Below, one piece after another: positions 1,940 to 18,690 of a stretch of 64,000 bases of DNA. Origin of the DNA: an uncultured Candidatus Saccharibacteria bacterium (GTDB lineage Bacteria; Patescibacteriota; Minisyncoccia; Phycocordibacterales; UBA5272). Where the stretch lies: assembly GCA_964443675.1 (NCBI GenBank), contig CAYUDN010000002.1, positions 2,586 to 66,585 on the forward strand, read 5' to 3'. The position numbers and the translations under genes are program-made. The stretch's first letter is position 1. Every line of letters begins with the position of its first letter. The notes beneath the pieces are model-generated. The model ran no database searches. It was not told where the DNA came from and saw only the letters and a list, made by a program, of their open reading frames with translations.

Positions 1940-2230
1940 ATGAATCACCCCACGGCAAGCCGACGGGGTGATTCATTTGTTAAAAAAACAGCCGGATTTC
2001 ATTTTTATCAAGGTAATGGAATCCAGAAATATTTTGTTACGGGTCATGCCTATTCTATTTCTCGAGTCAATCCACAACAGCAAACTGTGAAAGTGGTTAA
2101 CCCCTGGGACACATCAAAACCAATAGAAATGAGTTTTGAGCAGTTTAAAGGTACTTTCACTGATATTTCAATCGTTGAAGTTGATGTTGAAAAGTTTTTA
2201 GACTATACAAGCAAGTATGCAGAAAAATAG
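1940..2230 (+). pseudogene. Calpain-like (peptidase C2) C-terminal fragment; 5' part with catalytic Cys is missing
   Basis: Contains GHAYSI and NPW motifs matching the calpain His and Asn catalytic region (GHAYSVT...RNPWG). Only ~60 nt separate it from the HlyD gene, so the Cys-bearing N-terminal half cannot be present. Confidence 0.4.
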
Positions 2231-2298
2231 TCTAAACAAGAGTAGGGTGAATTATTTCTGTGACACCTAAGTTCTAATACTGTCTACGACAGTACACC
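2231..2298. repeat. Cassette 3'-boundary element copy 1 (TCTAAACAAGAGTAGGGT...GTTCTAATACTGTCTACGACAGTACACC)
   Basis: The ~65-nt motif is repeated at 4434-4496 and 6046-6099. Its 3' core GTCTACGACAGTACACC is also at 3024-3053 and 4875-4904. Confidence 0.7.
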
Positions 2299-2382
2299 AA
2301 TCGATAACATCAATAAAATCAAGGGTTATTTTTTCTAGCCTTTCGCAAAAAACGATTAGGTTGGAAATGATACACTATAGAT

Positions 2383-3006
2383 ATGAAAAAAATTATCATT
2401 TTTGATTTTGACGGAGTGATTATTGATAGCTCAAAAGAGGCTTATAAGTTATTAAAAAAGGCATACCCTGATTTAAATCAAGTTCAATTCGAAAGTTTAT
2501 TTAGTGGAAATATATTTTCAGAATTACAAAAGTTTGGCAATCCTCAAATATCAATCGAGGATTTGCAAACGGAATGGAAGAATATTATTTCATTGCAAAA
2601 TGTTCGTCCACCGTTGGTAGAAGGAATAAAAGAAATTATTGAAAAACTAAATAAAGATTTTTTGCTTGTTATTAATACTGCTTCTGAAAAAGAAGTAGCA
2701 GAAAAGTTTCTACTAGAAAATAACCTAGACTACTTCAGTGGAATTTATGGTTCAGAAACCTCTAGAAGTAAGGTTGAGAAATTTAAAGTTATTTTTAGCA
2801 AACATAATTGTGAAGCAAAAGATTGTATTTTTATTACAGATACAATTGGTGATGTTGCTGAATCTTCTTCAGTTGATATAGCAACTATTTTAGTTTCGTG
2901 GGGGTATCAAAGTATTGAACTCTTTAATAGTGTGGGGCCAGATGTTGCTGCTATAGCAAACATACCAGTAGAACTTTTAACCAAGTTAGAAAATTTAACA
3001 AAGTAA
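2383..3006 (+). CDS. HAD-superfamily hydrolase (phosphatase)
   Basis: N-terminal MKKIIIFDFDGVIIDS (DxDG motif I), 207 aa. Confidence 0.8.
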   Translation: MKKIIIFDFDGVIIDSSKEAYKLLKKAYPDLNQVQFESLFSGNIFSELQKFGNPQISIEDLQTEWKNIISLQNVRPPLVEGIKEIIEKLNKDFLLVINTASEKEVAEKFLLENNLDYFSGIYGSETSRSKVEKFKVIFSKHNCEAKDCIFITDTIGDVAESSSVDIATILVSWGYQSIELFNSVGPDVAAIANIPVELLTKLENLTK

Positions 3007-3023
3007 TGTATTTTACTGAATCT

Positions 3024-3053
3024 GAGTTCTAATCCCGTCTACGACAGTACACC
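3024..3053. repeat. Cassette 3'-boundary core copy 2 (GAGTTCTAATCCCGTCTACGACAGTACACC)
   Basis: Exact 30-nt match to copies at 4467-4496 (1 mismatch) and 4875-4904. Confidence 0.7.
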
Positions 3054-3071
3054 GATGAATGATAACTAAAA

Positions 3072-3121
3072 ATCTCCTTGTAAATGAGGAGATTTTTAGC
3101 CTGCCTGTCCTACAAGGCAGG
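3072..3121 (+). terminator. Rho-independent terminator (ATCTCCTTGTAAATGAGGAGATTTTT) followed by a second hairpin CCTGCCTGTCCTACAAGGCAGG
   Basis: 7-bp stem plus T-run. The second hairpin is identical at 4950-4971, and the first has a structural equivalent of different sequence at 4924-4947. Confidence 0.6.
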
Positions 3122-3182
3122 TTACAACATTTTGCTCCCCTTTCGAGAAAAACACTTAGGTTGGAAATGGTATACTTTCGTA

Positions 3183-4433
3183 ATGTTAGAAAAAATATCA
3201 GAAGCTGTAAAAAACACAAATACTGAACTTGAAGATTTGGCTCTTATTGTTGCTAAAGAAATTAGAACTGCAAATGATTTAACCTTTGAACAAAGAAAAG
3301 AGCTTTTAGGATTGGTTAGAAAGTGGTCGAAATATGTGAAAGATAATGGAGTAGATCAATCAGATGTGCTTTCTGTGAGGTATCATTTACTTGAGTTTTC
3401 GAGGAAGAATTTTAAACATAATACTGAATTTGAAAAAGATGTTAAGTTGCAGAGTATTCCCGTGGATAATTTAGAGTTGCCAGATGGTTCGTTATTTAAA
3501 GATTACATAAATAGAAATTTTGAAGGTGGTGACATCTTTAGTGATGAACACACTGCAATCTATGGTGGAATCGCTCGACTTGCTCTTAAGTTACACGCTT
3601 CACAAAGTAATCCTAGTTATGATTTTCGTTTGATTGATTCTGAATTACCAATAAATGATGTTGACGTTATTGTGGATGACAAGAATGTAGGTAATAAATA
3701 TAAATCAGGTATTGCTGGCACAAGGGTCGTTGGAGACCTAGAAGAGTATTTGAAAGCGTATTACCAGACCGTTGAATGCACAATCAACCAAGCATTAATT
3801 TATAAAGGGGAGCTTTTGTATACTGAAAACGCTTTACAAGATAATACGACAGGAGAGCTTCGTTTTATTGAAAAAGATGAAACCCTTTTTAATCCAGATT
3901 CTATGGCCTTAGAAGATGGAAAAATATTTGTTACGGGCAAGGGGTTTTATAGGGCATTAGCTTACCTTCTAAGACATAAAGCACATAAACTTTCTCTTTA
4001 TCAAGATAATCTAGATTTTTTAAAGAAAAGTAAGTACACTTGGGCTTCTCCACTACCAAAGATTTTATTCCTTAAAGATGCAGAGGTCAGAAATAGAGCT
4101 ATTAACGAATGGCATAGTCTTGCTAGGAGTTTAGGGGTGACAACTAGCAGAAATCCTGAAGAATTCTTGGAAGAAATTATTTCTGAAAATCCTAGTATTG
4201 TAAATTACAATTTTAAAACTGAGGAAAATAATGCAGAAGAAATAAGGTGGATAATAAATCAATTTTTGAAATCGGGGGTTAGGAGTGTTATTCCAGACTC
4301 ATACCCAAAGGGAATGAGTAATGAGGTTGTTACTATTGATATACGAGAATTAGATGTCGAGGAACATGATTTGAGTAAGTTTTTTGAAAAAGTAAATTCA
4401 ACATTTAAAAATGCTCATTTTAATATAGTGTAA
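3183..4433 (+). CDS. Hypothetical protein (416 aa), cassette gene
   Basis: ORF with ATG at 3183 immediately after the conserved leader TTAGGTTGGAAATGGTATACT. The longer track ORF from 3084 would read through the repeat/terminator. No family is recognised with confidence. Confidence 0.55.
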   Translation: MLEKISEAVKNTNTELEDLALIVAKEIRTANDLTFEQRKELLGLVRKWSKYVKDNGVDQSDVLSVRYHLLEFSRKNFKHNTEFEKDVKLQSIPVDNLELPDGSLFKDYINRNFEGGDIFSDEHTAIYGGIARLALKLHASQSNPSYDFRLIDSELPINDVDVIVDDKNVGNKYKSGIAGTRVVGDLEEYLKAYYQTVECTINQALIYKGELLYTENALQDNTTGELRFIEKDETLFNPDSMALEDGKIFVTGKGFYRALAYLLRHKAHKLSLYQDNLDFLKKSKYTWASPLPKILFLKDAEVRNRAINEWHSLARSLGVTTSRNPEEFLEEIISENPSIVNYNFKTEENNAEEIRWIINQFLKSGVRSVIPDSYPKGMSNEVVTIDIRELDVEEHDLSKFFEKVNSTFKNAHFNIV

Positions 4434-4496
4434 ACAAGGGTAGAGTAAATTACTTTTGCATCATCTGAGTTCTAACCCCGTCTACGACAGTACACC
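4434..4496. repeat. Cassette 3'-boundary element copy 3
   Basis: AACAAGGGTAGAGTAAATTACTTTTGCATCATCTGAGTTCTAACCCCGTCTACGACAGTACACC. Confidence 0.7.
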
Positions 4497-4586
4497 ACGT
4501 AAATAGAGTAATAAAATCAGTGGTTATTTTTTGTACCTAATCGAGAATGATCGCTAGGTTGGAACCAGAATGATATAATTGAATAT

Positions 4587-4877
4587 ATGTCATTAGAATC
4601 ACCAAACCAAAATCCGCTTTCTGTAAGAGAAAAGTATTTATCAAAAGTCGATAAAGAAGGTTTCGTATATGTCGGTGATTTTTCAACTCAAGAATTAAAA
4701 CGACAATCAAAAAGTATTGCTTCATTTTTGGATGGAGAAGAAGGAACGGAACCAGATATAAATTTAGGTAACGGAATAAGATTTAAAGGATCTTCAGGAA
4801 ATTATTCAGATATGAAAGTGCACGTTGATGACCTTGAAGAGTTTATAAAGAGAGTAAGGAATTACTACGGAGATTAG
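4587..4877 (+). CDS. Hypothetical small protein (96 aa), cassette gene
   Basis: ORF preceded by a TATAAT-like -10 at ~4572. The stop codon TAG overlaps the start of boundary motif copy 4. Confidence 0.45.
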   Translation: MSLESPNQNPLSVREKYLSKVDKEGFVYVGDFSTQELKRQSKSIASFLDGEEGTEPDINLGNGIRFKGSSGNYSDMKVHVDDLEEFIKRVRNYYGD

Positions 4878-4904
4878 TTCTAATCCCGTCTACGACAGTA
4901 CACC
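4875..4904. repeat. Cassette 3'-boundary core copy 4
   Basis: TAGTTCTAATCCCGTCTACGACAGTACACC; overlaps the stop codon of the preceding gene. Confidence 0.7.
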
Positions 4905-4923
4905 AATCAATAAAAACTAAAAG

Positions 4924-4971
4924 TTCCCTTATTAAAGAGGGGGTTTTAGCCTGCCTGTCCTACAAGGCAGG
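4924..4971 (+). terminator. Terminator hairpin (TCCCTTATTAAAGAGGGGGTTTT) plus conserved hairpin CCTGCCTGTCCTACAAGGCAGG
   Basis: Stem-loop plus T-run. Same architecture as 3072-3121, with compensatory changes in the first stem. Confidence 0.55.
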
Positions 4972-5121
4972 TTACATATTTATGTACCCTTTAGCGAATA
5001 ACATGTAAAGTTGGAACTGCTTCATATTTTGCACATCATTTGCATTAAGGTATACAAACACAGATTCATACATGAAATAAACGTTAACTTAACACAAAAC
5101 TAAGTGTAATTTACGATTTTG

Positions 5122-5150
5122 TTGACATATTTACATAAATTTGCTATAAT
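5122..5150 (+). promoter_or_regulatory. Consensus sigma70 promoter TTGACA-17-TATAAT for the Fic gene
   Basis: TTGACA at 5122-5127 and TATAAT at 5145-5150. The ATG at 5165 implies a very short leader. Confidence 0.6.
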
Positions 5151-5164
5151 ACATGGTGTAAGTT

Positions 5165-6040
5165 ATGAAAAAAAATACTAAAAAGCTTCAAAAAATACTT
5201 GATTTAAAACAGAAGTATGACTCTCTTAAAAAAGGGAAGGATTCACTTTTAAACATTATCGAAGAAGTTGAACTTGCTGAGTCTGTGTATAATTCAAATG
5301 CTATAGAAAATTCGACACTAACTTTACCAGATACAGAAAAAATTCTTTTGGACCTTGAAGTGTCAAAGAACTATTCACTCCGTGAAGTCTTTGAAGCAAA
5401 AAACTTAGCGAGGGTATATGAATATATACGAAAGAAGAAAGATTCAATCATTCTTAATCAAGAAACAATATTGTTTATTCACTCATTATTACTAGGTGGT
5501 ATTAATGACGATATTGCTGGAAGGTTTAGAAAAGAGAACGAATATGTGCGAGTTGGAAAACATGTTGCACCCGCACCCGAGCATGTACTACGAATGACAG
5601 AGGTTTTACTTAACGAATACAAATCAGATCATACTACAAATATTTTTTCAAAAATCGCATATTTTCATCTTCAATTTGAAACAATACATCCATTTGTAGA
5701 TGGTAATGGTCGTATTGGTCGCGTGCTTATAAATTTACAACTTCAGGAATTTGGATATCCAAATATTATTATTCGAGATAAAGAGAAACATTTATATTAC
5801 AAAACCTTTTCTTATTTTAGAGACAAGAAATCTACAAAAGAAATGGAGCAAATTATCTACCTTGCTCTTTCTGAAGGGTTGAATAAAAGAATTGCATATT
5901 TAGAAAGTAGAAAAATAGTAACCCTCTCAGAGTATTCCAAGAAAAAGAAAGTACCGTTAGCCAATCTTATTAATCAGGGCAAACGTCAAACAATCGAAGC
6001 TTTTCGAGAAAAAGGGGTTTGGAAAATTGGGGTTAAATAA
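5165..6040 (+). CDS. Fic-family protein (AMPylator / adenylyltransferase-type) with an N-terminal inhibitory motif
   Basis: Canonical Fic motif HPFVDGNGRIGR. The N-terminal SNAIEN matches the (S/T)xxxE(G/N) auto-inhibitory helix motif of class II Fic proteins. Confidence 0.85.
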   Translation: MKKNTKKLQKILDLKQKYDSLKKGKDSLLNIIEEVELAESVYNSNAIENSTLTLPDTEKILLDLEVSKNYSLREVFEAKNLARVYEYIRKKKDSIILNQETILFIHSLLLGGINDDIAGRFRKENEYVRVGKHVAPAPEHVLRMTEVLLNEYKSDHTTNIFSKIAYFHLQFETIHPFVDGNGRIGRVLINLQLQEFGYPNIIIRDKEKHLYYKTFSYFRDKKSTKEMEQIIYLALSEGLNKRIAYLESRKIVTLSEYSKKKKVPLANLINQGKRQTIEAFREKGVWKIGVK

Positions 6041-6045
6041 TACAA

Positions 6046-6099
6046 TCTAAACAAGAGTAGGGTAAGTTACTTCTGTGTCACCTGAGTTCTAATCCCGTC
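6046..6099. repeat. Cassette boundary element copy 5 (truncated; diverges after CCCGTC); right end of the cassette array
   Basis: TCTAAACAAGAGTAGGGTAAGTTACTTCTGTGTCACCTGAGTTCTAATCCCGTC, then unique sequence leading into tpiA. Confidence 0.65.
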
Positions 6100-6172
6100 G
6101 TTGCAGAACAATCATATCGCACAAGATGTAATTTGAGGCGTGTTCTTAAGTCGTGATATACTTGCTTATATT

Positions 6173-9648: not shown

Positions 9649-9688
9649 AGACAATAAAACGAAGGGTAAACCCTTCGTTTTATTGTCT
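9649..9688. terminator. Perfect 18-bp palindromic hairpin (AGACAATAAAACGAAGGGT AAA CCCTTCGTTTTATTGTCT)
   Basis: Perfect inverted repeat with a 3-nt loop, lying between two convergent genes. Confidence 0.7.
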
Positions 9689-9710
9689 TAAAAAACACAA
9701 CCTTCTGATT

Positions 9711-9870
9711 ATACCATCTCCAACTAAGGCTTCCGAGTATATAGGTGTCTATACTTTTTAGCGAAAAACAAGTCGGAACACGAATCATATAGATATATGA
9801 AGAGTGTGAGACGAGGTTTTGCAGCAAAAAGTATAACCACTTGTTCGGAATGGTTAGTTGGAGATGGTAT
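9711..9870. repeat. 160-bp element bounded by a 17-bp perfect inverted repeat (ATACCATCTCCAACTAA / TTAGTTGGAGATGGTAT), extendable to an interrupted 26-bp stem; candidate structured RNA or MITE
   Basis: The arms are at 9711-9727 and 9854-9870. The adjacent GGCTTCCGA / TCGGAATGG extends pairing. Internal complementary segments AACAAGTCGGAA and ACTTGTTCGGAA are present. The right arm overlaps the xth stop codon. Confidence 0.5.
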
Positions 9871-13272: not shown

Positions 13273-14226
13273 CTATTCTTCTTTTTTCTTACGATGAAAC
13301 TTCTCATACTGATCTCTTAAGAACTTATTCGTTACATTGGTATAAATTTGTGTTGTTGCGATAGACGCATGTCCAAGCATCATCTGCACGGTGCGGAGGT
13401 CAGCACCATTGTAAAGAAGGTCGGTTGCGAACGAGTGACGAATTACGTGCGGAGTACATTTCTTTGCAATACCAACACGTTCTGCATACTTCTCTACAGT
13501 ACGCTCAACACTGCGAGGAGTGAGACGTATTGACTCTTCTTTTTCAATACGAGCATGTGCACGAGGGGAATGATCCACAAACATCGCTTCATCAATATCA
13601 ACACGCTCTTTCAGGTATGCTTTTACTGTTGCAAGTGCACTGCCAGAAATAAACACTACGCGAATCTTCCCACCTTTTCCTCGAATAGAAATTTCACCAG
13701 AAGAAAGATCACAATCTCGATCAAGCGAACAAAGCTCCGAAACACGAAGCCCGGTAGAAAAGAGAAGTTCTAGCATCGCCTTATCTCGAAGTCCCGCAAT
13801 AGTACCCACATCTGGAGCAGAAAGAAGCGATAGAAGCTCTTTCTCAGAAATAAGATCGAGTTCTCTTTGGGAAGTTTTGGCGAGTTCGATCTTCTCTGGA
13901 TCATAGCCTTCCACTCCACGTTTTCGAATATATTTTAGAAAGGCACGAAGAGCGATAAGGTGGTAATTCTGTGTTTTTTTGTCGAGAGTTTCTTGTGCTT
14001 GACCTTTCTTCATCTCTCGTGCAGGGAAACGGTTAAGAAAGATACGATATTCACGCATCATTTGTTCAGTAATTGCGTGTGGTGTTACTACGCTATACTT
14101 CGTCTCTGCAAACTCAAGAAACCTTGTTAAGTAATGGTCGTAGTTACGTACCGTGAGCGCGCTTCTACCTTTTTCGATTTCGATATATTGTAAAAAATCT
14201 TGTTTAAGAGAAAAGAGGGAGGGCAT
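13273..14226 (-). CDS. xerD: Tyrosine site-specific recombinase, XerC/XerD family
   Basis: N-terminal SAM-like core-binding domain. Catalytic domain carries R...HxxR...Y motifs (LRVSELCSL, HVIRHSFATDLL, LGHASIATTQIYTNV). Confidence 0.85.
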   Translation of the reverse strand: MPSLFSLKQDFLQYIEIEKGRSALTVRNYDHYLTRFLEFAETKYSVVTPHAITEQMMREYRIFLNRFPAREMKKGQAQETLDKKTQNYHLIALRAFLKYIRKRGVEGYDPEKIELAKTSQRELDLISEKELLSLLSAPDVGTIAGLRDKAMLELLFSTGLRVSELCSLDRDCDLSSGEISIRGKGGKIRVVFISGSALATVKAYLKERVDIDEAMFVDHSPRAHARIEKEESIRLTPRSVERTVEKYAERVGIAKKCTPHVIRHSFATDLLYNGADLRTVQMMLGHASIATTQIYTNVTNKFLRDQYEKFHRKKKEE

Positions 14227-14334: not shown

Positions 14335-15993
14335 TTATCGCTTCATCAGCATCATCTTCACAAAGTCGTCAACTGCCAACTCTGCAAAAGCTTGTGCCGT
14401 CTCTTGTTGGTTGGGAGACATGAGCGCAACACGAAGAGCGGAAATGATAATCTTCTGATAGAGGTCTCGAACCTTTGCGTCAGAAGTGTCTACCATTTCC
14501 ACAAGAGGATGTGTTGGATTGATTTTCAAACACACCGATTCTGGGTTAAAGAACCAAAGCTTCGAACCAAGGTCATCAGACACCACGTGGAGACCAGAAG
14601 AATGTCCGCGAACAACTTTTCGCTCGCTACCTTTCCCAACCACAACAACGGGATGATGTGCCTTTTTCTCGTCTTTTGTTCCTGGTTCTGACTTCTTTGC
14701 AGCACTTTTACCCCTACGAATAGGAGTAACGTTTTTGCCAGTCATTCCAAAACCAGTAACATCGGTTCCTGGGAGATCTACGTGTCCGATGCCAACACTA
14801 CCGAACTTTGCGTTCACAAACAACGAAGCAAAAGGTGAGGTGTCTTTTTTCAGAAAGTCACCAATCTTAAGAAGAGCTTCTTCGACCAGAACCTGGTGAC
14901 GAACAGCTTCTCGTTTTGCCTTCTCATCGTTGTAGTACGTCGACCCGATGGTTTTGTACCAAGTGTCGACAGCACACGCAAGCGCAAGCTGAGCATCACC
15001 TTCTTCAAATCCTTTACGAGAGGACCGAAGGACGAGATTCTCTGCCAAGATTTCACCCTGGAACATTCCAGAAGCAATCGCCGTTTTTGTCTTCTCGTCG
15101 AGCATCCGATAAAACGATCCCTCGTTAAGCCGGTCAGCACGAAGAGGGAGACGGAACGGGTTCGACTGGGAACCGACACCGATACGAAGTGGCCCCTTAT
15201 GGCCTACAGGAGCAAGATAGAACATCACCTCGACTTTTCCTGCTGCTTCGTCGTCAAACACCCACACGGGGAGCTCTTTCCCTTCGAACTTTTTTGCTTT
15301 GAAGGTCTGTTCTGTGCGTTTTCCTTCTTCAATGACAACAACCTTTATGGAAGTTCCCAGAGAAGCGAGTTTTGCACCATACTCAATCTGCACTTCAGAC
15401 TTAAACTGATCGAAGTCAAAGCGACGCTTCACCTTGTCAGTAGTCAATCCGTACATCTTTACTTGAGTACGCCACCACACAGACTCACGGTAGGAGGTGC
15501 CTTTTTGTTTTGGGGTCCTTCCATCTTCGTGAGCAAAAGAAGGTTCTGGTTGGTTGTAAAAAGGCCACCCTTCTTCTTTTGTCTCAAACATCTTCTTACG
15601 ATCAAACTCATACGACTGGTACACATGCCCAGTCGAAGCAGTAATGATTTCAAAAGATGCATGAATAGAGAGCGGACTAACCATCCCAAGACCAAACCGT
15701 CCATAACGATCACCTCTACCGCCTTTTACCGACCTCCCAATCGACTCAAGCGCTTCGTGAACGATTTTGCTGGACATGCCAGCACCGTTGTCAAAAAACG
15801 ACACTTCACCGGAGTCAAGGTCAACAATCAGCAAAATACTTGTTGCACCTCCTGACTCAAGATCAACGGCGTTTTGCAACAACTCCTTGTACACCGGTAC
15901 CGCTGTCGGGTACACCTCAAGTGCTCGTTCCAACAATCCTCCACGATGACCCTTTGCAAAGATCACCTTCTTCCCAGACTTTTCAGCCACCAT
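14335..15993 (-). CDS. Bergerat-fold (GHKL / HATPase_c-type, MORC/sacsin-like) ATPase, 552 aa
   Basis: N-box ELLQNAVD, G1 box DNGAGM, G2 box GRFGLG. SD AAGAGGAG precedes the ATG. Only a 12-nt gap separates it from the upstream gene. Confidence 0.7.
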   Translation of the reverse strand: MVAEKSGKKVIFAKGHRGGLLERALEVYPTAVPVYKELLQNAVDLESGGATSILLIVDLDSGEVSFFDNGAGMSSKIVHEALESIGRSVKGGRGDRYGRFGLGMVSPLSIHASFEIITASTGHVYQSYEFDRKKMFETKEEGWPFYNQPEPSFAHEDGRTPKQKGTSYRESVWWRTQVKMYGLTTDKVKRRFDFDQFKSEVQIEYGAKLASLGTSIKVVVIEEGKRTEQTFKAKKFEGKELPVWVFDDEAAGKVEVMFYLAPVGHKGPLRIGVGSQSNPFRLPLRADRLNEGSFYRMLDEKTKTAIASGMFQGEILAENLVLRSSRKGFEEGDAQLALACAVDTWYKTIGSTYYNDEKAKREAVRHQVLVEEALLKIGDFLKKDTSPFASLFVNAKFGSVGIGHVDLPGTDVTGFGMTGKNVTPIRRGKSAAKKSEPGTKDEKKAHHPVVVVGKGSERKVVRGHSSGLHVVSDDLGSKLWFFNPESVCLKINPTHPLVEMVDTSDAKVRDLYQKIIISALRVALMSPNQQETAQAFAELAVDDFVKMMLMKR

Positions 15994-16005
15994 TACTAAC
16001 TCCTC

Positions 16006-16776
16006 TTAGTTAAGTTCTCGATAGGCACGTTCACTGCACAACCTTGCAAGAAGGTTCTTCAAGTCAAAGATACTCTTTTGTCCTGCTACTTCACGAAGAA
16101 ACCTTCTATCCTCTTCTGTTGTTGAAGCATCACAGTAGAACTGTGCAAAGTCAGTCAAATTTGAAACCAAAGAAGCAAACCTTTCTGCTCTTTTTCTTGC
16201 CTCTTCTTGAGTAACACTTTTCTCAGGAACCTCTGTGTTTGTAACACTAACAGTTTCTGGTTCAGGTTGTTGTACTGCTAGAGAGTCTTGAAGATACCTC
16301 TCCACAACACCTCTAAGCTCAAACAAAGAGTCTTTCTTCTTCTTTATCATGTTCCGAACACTATCCGGAACAGTATCAACGATAAGCTTGAGTTCTTCTC
16401 TATGTCTATCAGGAAGGAAACGGACACCGCGAACATGGAGCAAAAAGCTTTCTCGTACGGTTGCTGTATCAACGAAAAACTCAAGCCCTTTACCAGAAAC
16501 AGCAAAGAGTTGGAGGAGTTCCATTGAAACTTCTTCTTTTGCAACCACTCCAAAAGGAACAGGAATACCACAGAAGTCAAGAAAGATCGCAATCCTCAAA
16601 AGAGTCGACATTACTGCCGTCTCTTCTTTTTCAATGATCTTAACAAGACGGTATCTATGAATACCTACAGCCTTAGCGAACAAAAGAAGTTGGTCTGGTG
16701 TAAGTGCTTTTTGTAGCAAAAACAACCCTTCAAAAATTGACGTCTCAATGGACGTCTCTTGGCGTGCGTTTGTCAC
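16006..16776 (-). CDS. Hypothetical protein (256 aa) co-transcribed with the GHKL ATPase
   Basis: GTG start preceded by AAGGAG with a 7-nt spacer. No recognisable family. Confidence 0.5.
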   Translation of the reverse strand: MTNARQETSIETSIFEGLFLLQKALTPDQLLLFAKAVGIHRYRLVKIIEKEETAVMSTLLRIAIFLDFCGIPVPFGVVAKEEVSMELLQLFAVSGKGLEFFVDTATVRESFLLHVRGVRFLPDRHREELKLIVDTVPDSVRNMIKKKKDSLFELRGVVERYLQDSLAVQQPEPETVSVTNTEVPEKSVTQEEARKRAERFASLVSNLTDFAQFYCDASTTEEDRRFLREVAGQKSIFDLKNLLARLCSERAYRELN

Positions 16777-16848
16777 AATAAATCTCCTTGTAAAAGAACT
16801 CTTTCTTACCCTAACGCAACCCTACCACAAATAAACAAAAAGTCAAAC

Positions 16849-16873
16849 AAACCGTCCTTGTTGAGGACGGTTT
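16849..16873 (-). terminator. Hairpin AAACCGTCC-TTGTTGA-GGACGGTTT
   Basis: 9-bp stem. On the minus strand it is followed by a T-rich tract. Separates the HTH gene from the downstream pair. Confidence 0.55.
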
Positions 16874-16883
16874 AGTATAACTA

Positions 16884-17294
16884 TTATTTTCTTTTTACTT
16901 TCTCCTTTTGATGAAGAAGGTGGTTCCAGTCTTCGTTAGGAAATTGCCTTTTCATAAGAAGAACCCATCGTTCAAAGGAATGCTTAGACCCTTCCTCTGA
17001 AGACACTTCGCCATCTTCGCTTCTGTGAAGCTTCTTTTGTGCAATACACACAAGTGCTTGTAGGTCTTCTTTGGTAATTTCCTTTCTCGAAAGAGTATGG
17101 TTAAACAAAAGAACTTTAATTGCCTCATCTCCAAATACATCAAGAAGACAGTACAAAGCTTGCGTTGAGGCCTTATGTCCAGCAACATCTGATTCGTTAT
17201 GACTCACACTAGAACCAGTGCAACCAAGAAGAGCAGACAGTTCTCGAACTGTAAGACCTAACCTGTGCCTTCTGATAGCTTTAAAGGTACCCAT
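16884..17294 (-). CDS. XRE-family helix-turn-helix transcriptional regulator
   Basis: N-terminal MGTFKAIRRHRLGLTVRELSALLGCTGSSVSHNE (Cro/C1-type HTH). GGAG SD 5 nt upstream of the ATG at 17294. Confidence 0.6.
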   Translation of the reverse strand: MGTFKAIRRHRLGLTVRELSALLGCTGSSVSHNESDVAGHKASTQALYCLLDVFGDEAIKVLLFNHTLSRKEITKEDLQALVCIAQKKLHRSEDGEVSSEEGSKHSFERWVLLMKRQFPNEDWNHLLHQKEKVKRK

Positions 17295-17550
17295 AACTTC
17301 TCCTTTGTATTCAAAAAAACACCAAAGAGAGTGCAAGAGATATACTACACCAAACACTCTCCTTCTCAAAACAAAAAGATATTACTTCCTGAAAGAAAGT
17401 AAACATCGCTCAAGATACCTAATAATACACAATGAAAAAGAGTAACGTATAGTTATTTTTTAAGCTGTATACCAATCCGTGGAACGGTTTACAAAACTTT
17501 ACCAGTGTGTTAGTGTAAAAAGTAAGTGTTCTTAACTACGGAGATAGACC

Positions 17551-18690
17551 ATGTCGAGTGACAAACCTTTTGCAAAGAAGGCGGAACAGTGTTTCAAAAA
17601 AATCCTTAGCGTTCGCAGTCTTTATAACGCTGATGTTATTTACAGAATGGTTAATACTGGTGACGTTGAATGGAAAGACCTTTCTTTTGGAGAAAAAGAA
17701 CTTGAACAGAAAGTTCTTAGTATCTACCTAGCTGAAGCAGAAAAGTGCTTCGAAAAACTTAAGACGGGTGTTACCATCTTTCCTGCCACCGAGATCCAAA
17801 AACTCATCGGAAAGGGTGCAATTTCTTGGGCCATGTTGTCGTTTTCACAGGAAGAACTCGCACATGAACAACAGTCTGTTCATGTAAGAAGAGCGGAGCG
17901 TTTCTTTGCGAAGCTACAACAACGAAAGTCTGTTCAAGAGCATATCAACCTTCTTCGTGGAATGATTAAGGAGCAGGTCATAACATGGCCAATGCTCTCT
18001 TTCACAGAAAAAGACTTCCTAAAGGAGGAAAGGGCTGCTCACCTTGAACTGATTGTTCCTGTCTATAACGATGCAAAAAGTAACGGGTACGAAACCCTTA
18101 AGCATTACACAACAATGCTCAAGGTCAGGAACCTTGTTGATGGCGGAGTCCTTAATTGGGGAGATTTGCCGTTTTCCAAGAAAGACTTCGAGGCTGTTTT
18201 CCAAGCAAAAACAAACAAGAAACCTTCCCGTGTGGGGAGCTCTCTTGTAACACAAATCACTCGAGCGGAACCGTTTAGGGCGAAGGAGCTTGAAAAACGT
18301 ATTTGTGGAATGGTCAATGAGGGGAAATTCGGCTGGGAGGACATTGACACCACAAAAGAGGCACTTAGCAAAGAGGTTTTGAAGAGGGCTGTCCACTATG
18401 CAACTCGTCACTTTGAGTCACTGAAAAGAACTCAGAGTCCGGAACGTCATCTGTTGGCAATCCGATCACTCTTTGATCATGACCTCGTAACATGGGGAGA
18501 CCTTCCTTTCACAGAAAAAGATCTCTACAAACAAGAACGGTGTGCCTACACCAGAATTGCAGAAGATCACTTTTCTGCCATGAAAAGTGGGGTTACTTCT
18601 TCACCTGAAAAGATCCTTAACCTGGTTCGCCAAGGTAAGGTAAGATGGTCCTGGCTTACTTTCAGTGAAGAAGACATGGCATCCGTTTAA
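17551..18690 (+). CDS. Protein composed of seven tandem ~55-aa repeats with a conserved Trp motif, hypothetical
   Basis: Recurrent [VI]xWxxL[SP]F[ST]x[KE][DE][LF] motif: [91 protein letters not shown]. Confidence 0.6.

Follow-up and report, generated by a model that had tools for sequence, protein, structure and literature searches.

The stretch of DNA analysed here, called the window, comprises 64 kb of contig CAYUDN010000002.1 from an uncultured Candidatus Saccharibacteria bacterium, a member of the Candidate Phyla Radiation (CPR, or Patescibacteria). The ultra-small bacteria of this group account for a large share of bacterial diversity, their genomes of about 1 Mb contain few recognisable mobile elements, and their acquisition of genes is poorly understood. 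Between a macA-like gene and tpiA the window carries an island of ~4.2 kb in which single genes stand in tandem, separated by copies of a 28-nt element referred to as the core. Arrays of this type were found to be widespread but rare in CPR bacteria and represent a previously undescribed kind of gene-cassette array; no description of the motif, of CPR cassette arrays or of tRNA-His islands was found in the literature. Numbers preceded by L (L001, L002 and so on) are used as labels for related loci or contigs from other genomes.

Architecture of the island between the macA-like gene and tpiA

The core (GTTCTAAYCCCGTCTACGACAGTACACC) is present in four full copies and one truncated copy, all on the + strand. 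The full copies (2271-2298, 3026-3053, 4469-4496 and 4877-4904) lie directly 3′ of an open reading frame (ORF) in each case; the first has two mismatches (TACTG for TCCCG) and the other three have none to the Y-degenerate pattern. The truncated copy, a 16-mer (GAGTTCTAATCCCGTC), is located at 6084-6099. No further copy was found in the rest of the window, and in dinucleotide shuffles 0.00 matches to the 28-mer and 0.05 matches to the 16-mer were expected by chance.

The spacers are of two types in the order A-B-A-B-A, the last one being truncated. Type A consists of a head of ~40 nt 5′ of the core (TCTAAACAAGRGTAGGGT...; 2231-2270, 4428-4468 and 6045-6085) and a T-rich tail 3′ of it, whereas in type B the core comes right after the stop codon and is followed by a strong terminator hairpin and a second hairpin. 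The A-head is also found 3′ of unrelated genes in at least 12 other loci. The two B terminators have unlike stems (CTAAAAATCTCCT.../CTAAAAGTTCCCT...), the second hairpin is identical in both, and the fold of the B-tails has z values of -4.0 to -4.6. The second hairpin is confined to this genome, the B-tails of other loci being without it. Upstream of each gene stands the promoter GGTTGGAAnTGnTATACT, with an extended -10 box at a distance of 6-9 nt from the ATG, and the host's macA-like gene and tpiA carry the same promoter type as the cassettes. The cassette promoters (TGnTATACT) were located at 2346-2385, 3156-3185 and 4555-4589, with the same arrangement in related loci, and no Shine-Dalgarno sequence is visible before the cassette genes. 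The short distance between promoter and ATG together with the missing Shine-Dalgarno sequence suggests that the cassette mRNAs are leaderless.

The first unit (cassette 0; 1940-2230, +) is a remnant of 96 amino acids without a promoter of its own, classified as calpain-like (Peptidase_C2-related) on the basis of a weak Pfam hit, PF00648 being matched in its C-terminal part. The homologues are mostly 340-780 amino acids long, and residues ~18-90 of the remnant correspond to their C-terminal ~75 residues only; the gene is therefore regarded as 5′-truncated. It is followed by A-head copy 1 (2231-2270), core copy 1 (2271-2298) in the variant GTTCTAATACTGTCTACGACAGTACACC, which recurs identically in L016 at 4109, and an A-type tail with promoter (2299-2382; TTAGGTTGGAAATGATACACT at 2346-2366); the A spacer in this region shows 73% identity over 143 nt to the one at 4422-4564. 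Cassette 1 (2383-3006, +) encodes a HAD-family hydrolase of 207 amino acids (PF13419 HAD_2, E = 1e-16). Behind it lie the canonical core copy 2 (3026-3053, no mismatches) and a B-type tail (3054-3182) with the terminator hairpin at 3066-3099, the second hairpin at about 3100-3122 (fold z = -4.6), a GTACCC-like box and the promoter TTAGGTTGGAAATGGTATACT at 3156-3176.

Cassette 2 (3183-4433, +) encodes a protein of 416 amino acids, a divergent class-II nucleotidyltransferase resembling CCA-adding enzymes, and is followed by A-head copy 2 (4428-4468), whose GTAAAC includes the stop codon of the gene, by core copy 3 (4469-4496), a TAAC variant, and by an A-type tail with promoter (4497-4586; CTAGGTTGGAAC...TGATATAAT). 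The 96-aa protein of cassette 3 (4587-4877, +) is unassigned in function, with no match in Pfam, NCBIfam or PADLOC; a near-identical C-terminal coding end precedes a core in L011 at 1236. Core copy 4 (4877-4904) is canonical and overlaps the stop codon of this gene by one base. The following B-type tail (4905-5164) contains hairpins at 4917-4949 and about 4950-4972 and a degenerate form of the generic promoter (AAGTTGGAACTG), and the Fic gene has its own promoter of the sigma-70 type (TTGACA-17-TATAAT) at 5122-5150. Cassette 4 (5165-6040, +) encodes this Fic-domain protein of 291 amino acids (PF02661, E = 2e-21; PADLOC PDC-S04/SoFic). A-head copy 3 and the truncated core (6045-6099, +; core part GTTCTAATCCCGTC at 6086-6099) end the island, the break being at core position 13/14 and the tpiA promoter coming immediately after.

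An earlier note on this DNA, made from the sequence alone, had already described most of these features. The three copies of the 5′ extension, the truncation of the first gene and that of the last boundary motif at 6099 before tpiA were all found again, and the shared leader reported there is the host-type promoter GGTTGGAAnTGnTATACT. Of its five self-contained cassettes with a boundary motif, the tandem single-gene units and the motif proved real, but only four of the five units are complete. Both terminator hairpins with unlike stems and an identical second hairpin were seen as described, the second hairpin being specific to this genome.

The GC content of the island is 0.29-0.35 (about 0.32) compared to 0.39-0.46 (about 0.41) in the flanks. 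Homologues of the macA-like protein with 65-70% identity were found on long contigs of relatives, and in three of these (L031, L032 and L033/34) the site is empty: tpiA and the macA-like gene are divergent and only 76-127 nt apart, and no core was found in 52 kb of the three relatives. The wider synteny (Xer...sigma70-pgk-tpiA | macA-FtsX-ABC...NusA) is kept. It follows from the small gap and the conserved synteny that the 4.2 kb are an insertion between two promoters, in agreement with the proposal that an island had been inserted between the macA-like gene and tpiA. The exact insertion point was not resolvable by intergenic alignment, the relatives being too diverged (65-70% on the amino acid level). 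Regarding strain-level variation, look-ups of exact proteins gave only the same strain, on short contigs broken at repeats.

The ends of the island are ragged, the left one lying inside an ORF and the right one inside a core at position 13/14, and no tRNA or core-like target sequence is present at the macA/tpiA junction. Therefore, the island appears to be part of a larger array that arrived by an illegitimate event, and a site-specific insertion at this very junction is not supported. At the left junction itself, a perfect 14-bp inverted repeat (AAATGAATCACCCC-N13-GGGGTGATTCATTT; 1938-1978) overlaps the nominal start of the first ORF. As a run of A residues comes after it, this repeat does not qualify as a canonical terminator, whichever strand is read. 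In the relatives, the empty sites are without it.

The sole tyrosine recombinase of the window (13273-14226) is located 7 kb from the island and is XerC/D-like, with 233 bits to XerC/XerD and 109 bits to the integron integrase. Its gene holds the same syntenic position in relatives without the island and is a conserved housekeeping neighbour, not a part of the island. The absence of an integrase and of attC from the island, as stated in the earlier note, is thus confirmed, the folds of the core being not significant (see below). In one relative (L033/L034, 1-1344) genes for Cas1 and an IS605 OrfB-type (TnpB-like) protein lie beside the syntenic Xer gene; in the lineage of the window this position is occupied by other genes.

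Distribution of the core and its relation to tRNA-His

An exact 22-mer search of 185,579 species genomes gave matches in 18 contigs, and 9 metagenome contigs were obtained additionally. With one exception the 18 contigs are labelled as Paceibacterota/Parcubacteria, Nomura-, Taylor-, Sacchari- or Gracilibacteria. The exception, L018 (CAZGHY010000029.1), is labelled as an uncultured Gammaproteobacteria metagenome-assembled genome; it contains two cores and a cassette 99% identical to CPR contigs and is probably a misbinned CPR contig. When up to 5 mismatches were allowed, 48 non-redundant cores were counted in 25 loci or contigs from at least five CPR lineages. The cores are co-oriented within every locus, i.e. 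they form direct repeats, and the arrays contain up to 5 of them (L016; 3 each in L005, L007, L020 and L022). A co-oriented ORF ends within 80 nt upstream of 41 of the 48 cores, and ~31 unrelated protein families are represented. Within the 28 nt the top-base frequency is 0.95; it drops to 0.69 in an upstream extension of 8 nt (T.ATCTGA) and to 0.47-0.48 farther out. The unit of these arrays comprises a host-type promoter, one gene (occasionally 2-4), an optional head of ~40 nt and the 28-nt core, followed by the terminator tail; it has a size of 0.4-1.5 kb and contains no hallmark genes.

In six independent contexts (L002/21, L010/28, L017, L020, L025 and L038/39) a co-oriented tRNA-His gene is located directly upstream of the array. 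In the first five the array starts 3′ of tRNA-His(GTG) in a conserved Val-Arg-Leu-His tRNA cluster, and in L038/39 the array has decayed boundaries. The arrays of the window, L018 and L022 lie away from tRNA-His; in the whole 64-kb window (1-64000) ARAGORN found no tRNA gene. The window copy has the appearance of an ectopic piece of an array, such arrays normally residing at the 3′-end of tRNA-His. No hidden recombinase was found beside tRNA-His, where the neighbours encode a pseudouridine synthase and ribosomal protein L19.

Together with ~130 nt of downstream DNA, the 3′-end of tRNA-His can be aligned with the core, the B-tail and the cassette promoter. The homologous downstream part comprises ...CACACCA|AT, a terminator hairpin, the GTACCC box and the promoter GGTTGGAAnTGnTATACT, and the B-tail at 3054-3182 of the window is homologous in alignment to the DNA downstream of genuine tRNA-His genes. 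Moreover, in the part upstream of ACACCA the core with its CTGAG flank resembles the variable loop and T-arm of tRNA-His (CTCAGTTC(gggttc)GAATCCCG vs CTGAGTTC------TAATCCCG), and the acceptor strand of the tRNA (ATAGGCAC) is replaced by TCTACGACAGTAC in the core. Based on the T-arm resemblance and the replaced acceptor strand, the core is considered a non-functional mimic of the tRNA-His 3′-end including CCA; its place relative to terminator and promoter is that of the real tRNA-His end. The earlier note had regarded the 30-nt motif as a possible recombination site of an unrecognised cassette-shuffling system; given this mimicry and a homology extending ~130 nt further through terminator and promoter, it is no novel site standing by itself.

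Rearranged pieces of the tRNA itself are also common at these loci. A hairpin followed by an inverted tRNA-His 3′ fragment is often located after the real tRNA end or the core (L001, L006, L016, L017, L020, L026 and L038), for instance at 1096-1117 and 1860-1905 in L016, at 6496 and 8096 in L020 and at about 110-160 in L038. In several inverted fragments the hairpin lies between the T-stem part and the acceptor-strand part, e.g. TTCAAATCCCAC-GTAACAATG...CATTGTTAC-TGATAGGCAC. The anchor in L017 also contains short inserted segments between direct repeats of the tRNA end. Judged by such sequence traces, the tRNA-His locus is a hotspot of recombination. Fragments of genuine tRNA-His, both direct and inverted, occur at the anchors, and the core is homologous to the tRNA-His 3′ region without being a copy of it. 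Apart from the cores, a conserved non-coding stretch of ~100 nt (GTCCGGAGTATGTTT.TCTAGCAAG..GAAACGAC...GAGGAGCGGGAGGCGAGAA.TTTTTGTGACGACAAAAA.TTACTTGTCGAAGA.ATTCC) is common to two unrelated array loci, L017 (about 2500-2640) and L035 (about 9650-9800); a scan of L017 gave no Rfam match for it.

Recurrence of cassettes, breakpoints and their interpretation

The earlier expectation that the content between motif copies varies, as a check of mobility, was borne out, as units of the window recur in other genomes with other neighbours. The Fic gene is 93.8% identical on the amino acid level to L014 1553-2428, and for the 416-aa gene the copies in L003 and L038 reach identities of up to 92-93%, the neighbours differing in both cases. 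The gene of a Cu-oxidase-like protein of 437 amino acids is present in L012, L018, L022 and L024 at 78-99% identity, and L027 contains its 3′-end only; members of a family of ~97 amino acids were found in five loci. For the 437-aa cassette two differing upstream neighbours are confirmed (L018 and L022): these loci are unrelated upstream of the core, identical in the core and 95-100% identical through the cassette. A third differing upstream cassette is located in L008, where it is probably a neighbour of the 437-aa cassette because the tail of L008 is identical to that of L022 over 75 nt. On the other side, the five copies of the 437-aa cassette are identical through the core and part ways right after GTACAC(C), where they continue as tail A, as tail B or as unrelated DNA.

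The boundaries themselves are mosaics. In the tail, L018 and L022 are ~70% identical over the first ~60 nt (the terminator) and then ~100% identical. Upstream of the 416-aa gene lies a B-tail in the window and an A-type tail in its 92% twin in L038, and between the window and L014 the identity around the Fic gene is high only over the stretch that begins with the Fic promoter and ends where the head starts. Core, terminator and promoter with gene consequently assort separately, which indicates recombination within conserved stretches.

Structural discontinuities cluster at core positions 11-17. The truncated core of the window ends at CCCGT(C)|, position 13/14; a conserved 55-nt insert (ACCACARGGGTATTRCTWAAAACATAGTCGCAAGRCTCCTTGTTTTRAGGGAAT) stands exactly between T13 and C14 in L004, L013 and L014; variants in L035 break after C11; and an insert in L023 follows C17. 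In this small sample of sequences the breaks hint at nicking of the core centre by an enzyme, and the long form may stem from one ancestral event. The long-form cores are located at 1207-1290 in L014, at about 3190-3290 in L004 and at about 3955-4000 in L013, the last copy being truncated. In L014 the insert folds into a stem of 9 bp around a hairpin with a GCAA cap (z = -2.9), but L004 does not retain this fold.

Whether taken alone or together with the head, the core gave no significant fold on any strand, neither as DNA nor as RNA (z -0.9 to +1.3). The central pseudo-palindrome (TCCCGTC-TAC-GACAGTA) contains 0 compensatory changes, the 5-bp hairpin of the A-head is 85% paired with covariation no better than in controls (74 of 500 shuffles were as good), and at E <= 1 Rfam matched neither the island nor the cores of seven related loci. 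A structural conservation of the motif region, which had been suggested for examination, was thus not recovered; only the downstream terminator is a convincing hairpin. Furthermore, the 92%-identical 416-aa gene of L038 keeps the head and has lost the core; as this gene and the HIT gene of L007 persist without a core, the core is not needed for gene expression. The lack of fold, covariation and Rfam family and the dispensability of the core argue against an attC-type site as well as a structured RNA of the 3′-untranslated region (UTR), and they favour a sequence that would be read by a protein. Four candidate identities were rejected: a genuine tRNA or tmRNA (no ARAGORN hit in the window, T-stem unable to form), an attC-like hairpin or structured RNA (folds not significant, no covariation, no Rfam family), a phage attP (0 core matches in two scans of viral contigs) and a Xer/dif system (Xer a syntenic housekeeping gene, core unlike pdif). 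For the latter, no dif-like site above chance was found in the window with a dif consensus that may not be that of the host, so that a non-canonical Xer site would be conceivable.

The architecture and distribution of the arrays, their homology to tRNA-His, the sharing of cassettes between genomes, the empty site and the lack of a linked recombinase were observed directly; from these observations we infer that the core serves as a recombination site. In the interpretation that we favour, with a probability of roughly one half, the units are mobile cassettes whose core is read in trans, tRNA-His is their primary dock, homologous recombination reshuffles them, and the window holds an ectopic truncated fragment. 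The real tRNA-His 3′-end with its terminator and downstream promoter would then be the prototype of the repeated boundary module, and units would be gained, lost and exchanged by recombination at this module. Most likely, a site-specific recombinase encoded elsewhere in the genome would recognise the core, with tRNA-His corresponding to attI and the core to attC, and RecA-type homologous recombination in the conserved core and promoter stretches would shuffle the modules further. For the origin of the window copy we infer that a 4.2-kb piece of an array, cut in a gene on the left and in the core on the right, was inserted illegitimately between the divergent macA and tpiA promoters.

A more specific version is tentative, and we rate it somewhat below an even chance: the arrays might be a Patescibacteria analogue of integrons, with the tRNA-His 3′-end as attachment site, the 28-nt pseudo-tRNA-His as cassette site and an array-unlinked recombinase, either a host enzyme or a member of an unrecognised family, that would cut near core positions 11-14 and move promoter-equipped single genes between classes. 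The 28-nt marker would offer a searchable handle on the flexible gene pool of the CPR, in the form of exchanged, self-expressed single genes at a tRNA-His anchor, and the arrays would provide a natural landing pad and a cassette design for existing genetic systems of Saccharibacteria. Should the core be read by a dedicated enzyme, this enzyme would constitute a new system of site-specific recombination; if no such enzyme exists, the arrays would be an unusually clear cassette system kept purely by portable homology.

Several points weigh against a core that is read by a recombinase in trans. The breakpoints between closely related cassettes are not fixed and the terminator assorts independently of both neighbouring genes; such separate assortment of modules is a signature of homologous recombination and not of a single crossover site. 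The apparent conservation of the core is somewhat inflated, since the copies were found by similarity to it, its dyad symmetry is unconvincing (when it is read as 11-6-11, 6 of the 11 positions of the arms correspond, as counted by eye), and neither circular forms nor products of excision were observed. When XerD, Hin, the Xer protein of the window and a large serine recombinase were used as phmmer queries against the six-frame ORFs of 41 loci (350 kb), no recombinase was found within or beside any array. The recombinases that were found are the syntenic Xer, a large serine recombinase in L035, which is located at tRNA-Leu 5 kb from a cassette, and a fragment of a similar recombinase in L017 (5877-6683), 3 kb upstream of tRNA-His. 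Because most loci are short (8 kb or less), a distant recombinase may have escaped this search. Finally, the HIT gene has a core in L016 and none in its 88% homologue in L007, and ddl, the normally housekeeping gene of D-Ala-D-Ala ligase, lies between or beside cores in three genomes.

The most serious competitor, which we consider rather unlikely, dispenses with a recombinase. The boundary module of head, core, terminator and promoter (about 150-200 nt) would have arisen from the tRNA-His locus by duplication and divergence. One gene with one module, on a circle or on DNA that the cell has taken up, would integrate by RecA crossover at any point of this portable homology, and excision would take place between adjacent direct repeats; the 28-nt core would stay identical since a near-minimal perfect block for efficient recombination aids capture. 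CPR bacteria are naturally competent. This scheme would account for the homology between boundary and tRNA-His that runs ~130 nt past the core, for the variable breakpoints, mosaic boundaries and tail types swapped independently of both neighbouring genes, for the lack of a linked recombinase, and for the homogenisation of modules within arrays, visible in the extra hairpin found only in the two B-tails of the window and in three near-identical tails of L016. However, the 28-mer is sharply bounded on both sides, where conservation drops from 95% to about 50-60%, the five copies of one cassette begin to diverge precisely where the core ends on its 3′ side, and the discontinuities cluster at the centre of the core. 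Moreover, tails that are only ~70% alike would be poor substrates for homologous recombination, and identity across CPR classes would be hard to keep without a sequence-specific reader.

It is distinctly less probable that the arrays are decayed scars of serial integrations of integrase elements at tRNA-His, the integrases and the bulk of each element having been deleted and the cargo left between att remnants. The anchoring at tRNA-His, the direct and inverted tRNA-His 3′ fragments and repeat-flanked short insertions in L002, L017, L020 and L038 as well as the decayed boundaries of L038 are in line with such a history, for which the tandem accretion of tycheposons with partial tRNAs is a documented example (10.1101/2020.12.28.424599). 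The cores, however, are not local copies of tRNA-His (TCTACGACAGTAC for ATAGGCAC), so that a functional tRNA would not be restored, and the same non-tRNA sequence is common to classes whose tRNA-His genes differ. The units are also uniformly tiny, almost all with one gene and each with a promoter, and neither an integrase pseudogene nor a remnant of a hallmark gene was present in 350 kb, nor were there viral copies.

Very improbable in our view is a cis-acting, tRNA-like RNA signal of the 3′-UTR, ending in ...ACACCA, that would serve 3′ processing, stabilisation or tagging, with the arrays as a by-product. The position of the core, always between stop codon and terminator on the coding strand, its resemblance to the T-loop and 3′-end of tRNA-His including CCA, the GCAA-capped stem in the insert of the long form and a CCA-adding-enzyme-like protein as the most recurrent cargo would suit such a signal. 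Against it stand the missing significant fold, covariation (core or head hairpin) and Rfam family, a T-stem that cannot form, the persistence of the 416-aa gene in L038 and the HIT gene in L007 without a core, and the clustering at tRNA-His, which it leaves unexplained. A dispersed intergenic repeat of the repetitive extragenic palindrome (REP) or miniature inverted-repeat transposable element (MITE) type, clustered here by chance, is hardly credible even though the core is short, intergenic and at gene 3′-ends, as all copies of the window are inside the 4-kb island, none occur in 52 kb of three relatives, and the core is not palindromic and strictly co-oriented with the genes and with its other copies.

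Known systems, cargo genes and further observations

The arrays resemble sedentary chromosomal integrons and CALIN, i.e. clusters of attC sites without an adjacent integrase, in that cassettes of mostly one gene, all in one orientation and each with a repeat like a recombination site behind it, are arranged in tandem from a fixed chromosomal anchor and carry diverse, horizontally shared cargo of largely unknown function whose content varies between genomes. Unlike integrons, neither the window nor any of the related loci has an adjacent IntI-type recombinase, and the core is conserved in its primary sequence and not as a folded hairpin with R''/L''/L'/R' boxes. Each CPR cassette has its own GGTTGGAAnTGnTATACT promoter, whereas integron cassettes are promoterless and share Pc; furthermore, a terminator lies 3′ of the preceding core, the anchor is a tRNA gene instead of attI, and the repeat is kept across classes while that of integrons is species-specific.

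The minimal mobile elements of Neisseria are cassettes exchanged by natural transformation and homologous recombination via conserved flanks without a dedicated recombinase; these flanks are conserved genes, and tandem arrays are not formed. The CPR arrays differ from them in being tandem and in having a dedicated 28-nt element and a terminator-promoter module.

The dif modules of Acinetobacter and other integrative mobile elements exploiting Xer (IMEX) are small, contain one to few genes and no recombinase of their own, and are shuffled by a host enzyme at 28-bp sites (PMC13141974, PMC6449649). The CPR core has the same length of 28 nt and can be read as 11-6-11. The pdif sites alternate in orientation (C/D, D/C), have XerC/XerD arms (...CGTATAA-N6-TTATGTTAAAT) and resemble chromosomal dif (PMC13141974), in contrast to the CPR cores, which are all direct repeats and resemble tRNA-His. 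The arms of the core have no likeness to the pdif/dif consensus (PMC13141974, Table 1), which may not be that of the host. In Prochlorococcus, tycheposons accrete in tandem at tRNA genes with partial tRNAs between the units; their defining features are an integrase that faces inward and hallmark genes of replication, and their cargo amounts to several kb (10.1101/2020.12.28.424599). They share with the CPR arrays a tRNA gene that seeds a variable island, repeats resembling partial tRNAs and streamlined genomes with few classical mobile elements (10.1101/2020.12.28.424599), but the CPR units of 0.4-1.5 kb carry no integrase or hallmark genes and their repeat is a mimic and not a copy of the tRNA. 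The seeding at a tRNA gene that is typical of tRNA-targeting elements occurs in the six contexts named above and not in the window copy, L018 and L022. Compared to REP and MITE repeats, the cores are confined to arrays and have no significant palindrome (64 kb of this genome being examined).

The cargo across the arrays is mixed: it includes HAD, two Fic, GNAT, HIT and NADAR proteins, a protein with an FtsK-gamma domain, aldose epimerase, D-Ala-D-Ala ligase, MauE, a Pol-beta nucleotidyltransferase, the Cu-oxidase-like protein and many unknowns. Only the Fic protein matches defence models, and given the mixed accessory cargo the arrays are not a defence hotspot, contrary to what the earlier note had suggested from the genes of the island. 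The ddl genes are located at 3124-4083 in L016, 8756-9730 in L020 and 363-1301 in L013 and show 76-78% mutual amino acid identity; they are either native genes trapped in arrays, or ddl itself is exchanged as a cassette.

The family of the 416-aa protein is the most recurrent cargo, with members also in L005, L023 and L025, and spans 29-93% identity; 16 homologues were found in 5.8 billion proteins, all of them from CPR bacteria. The protein contains an invariant GGIARLALK...NDVDIVVDD motif with the GG.AR...D.D signature of nucleotidyltransferases. Its AlphaFold2 model has a predicted local distance difference test (pLDDT) score of 82, and the best matches of the model in the PDB are the CCA-adding enzymes 3h39, 6qy6 and 5hc9 (probability 0.89-0.99), no other kind of protein being matched with confidence; the match itself is weak (E about 3e-3, template modelling (TM) score about 0.3). 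As a CCA-adding-enzyme-like nucleotidyltransferase according to the model, the protein was rejected as a candidate mobility enzyme. Its gene is the second one after tRNA-His in L025 and L038, and in L040 a homologue is located in a glycan-synthesis cluster without cores. The presence of a CCA-adding-enzyme-like cargo in arrays bounded by mimics of tRNA 3′-ends may be a coincidence or reflect a functional link to the ...ACACCA ends.

The large serine recombinase of L035 belongs to an element of ~3.5 kb (14562-18012, also present in L036 and L037), which encodes a protein of 165 amino acids, a replication initiator of the Phage_CRI type, a protein of 56 amino acids and the recombinase of 556 amino acids, whose gene abuts tRNA-Leu(tag). 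It appears to be an integrative element of a CPR bacterium, similar to a plasmid or a phage.

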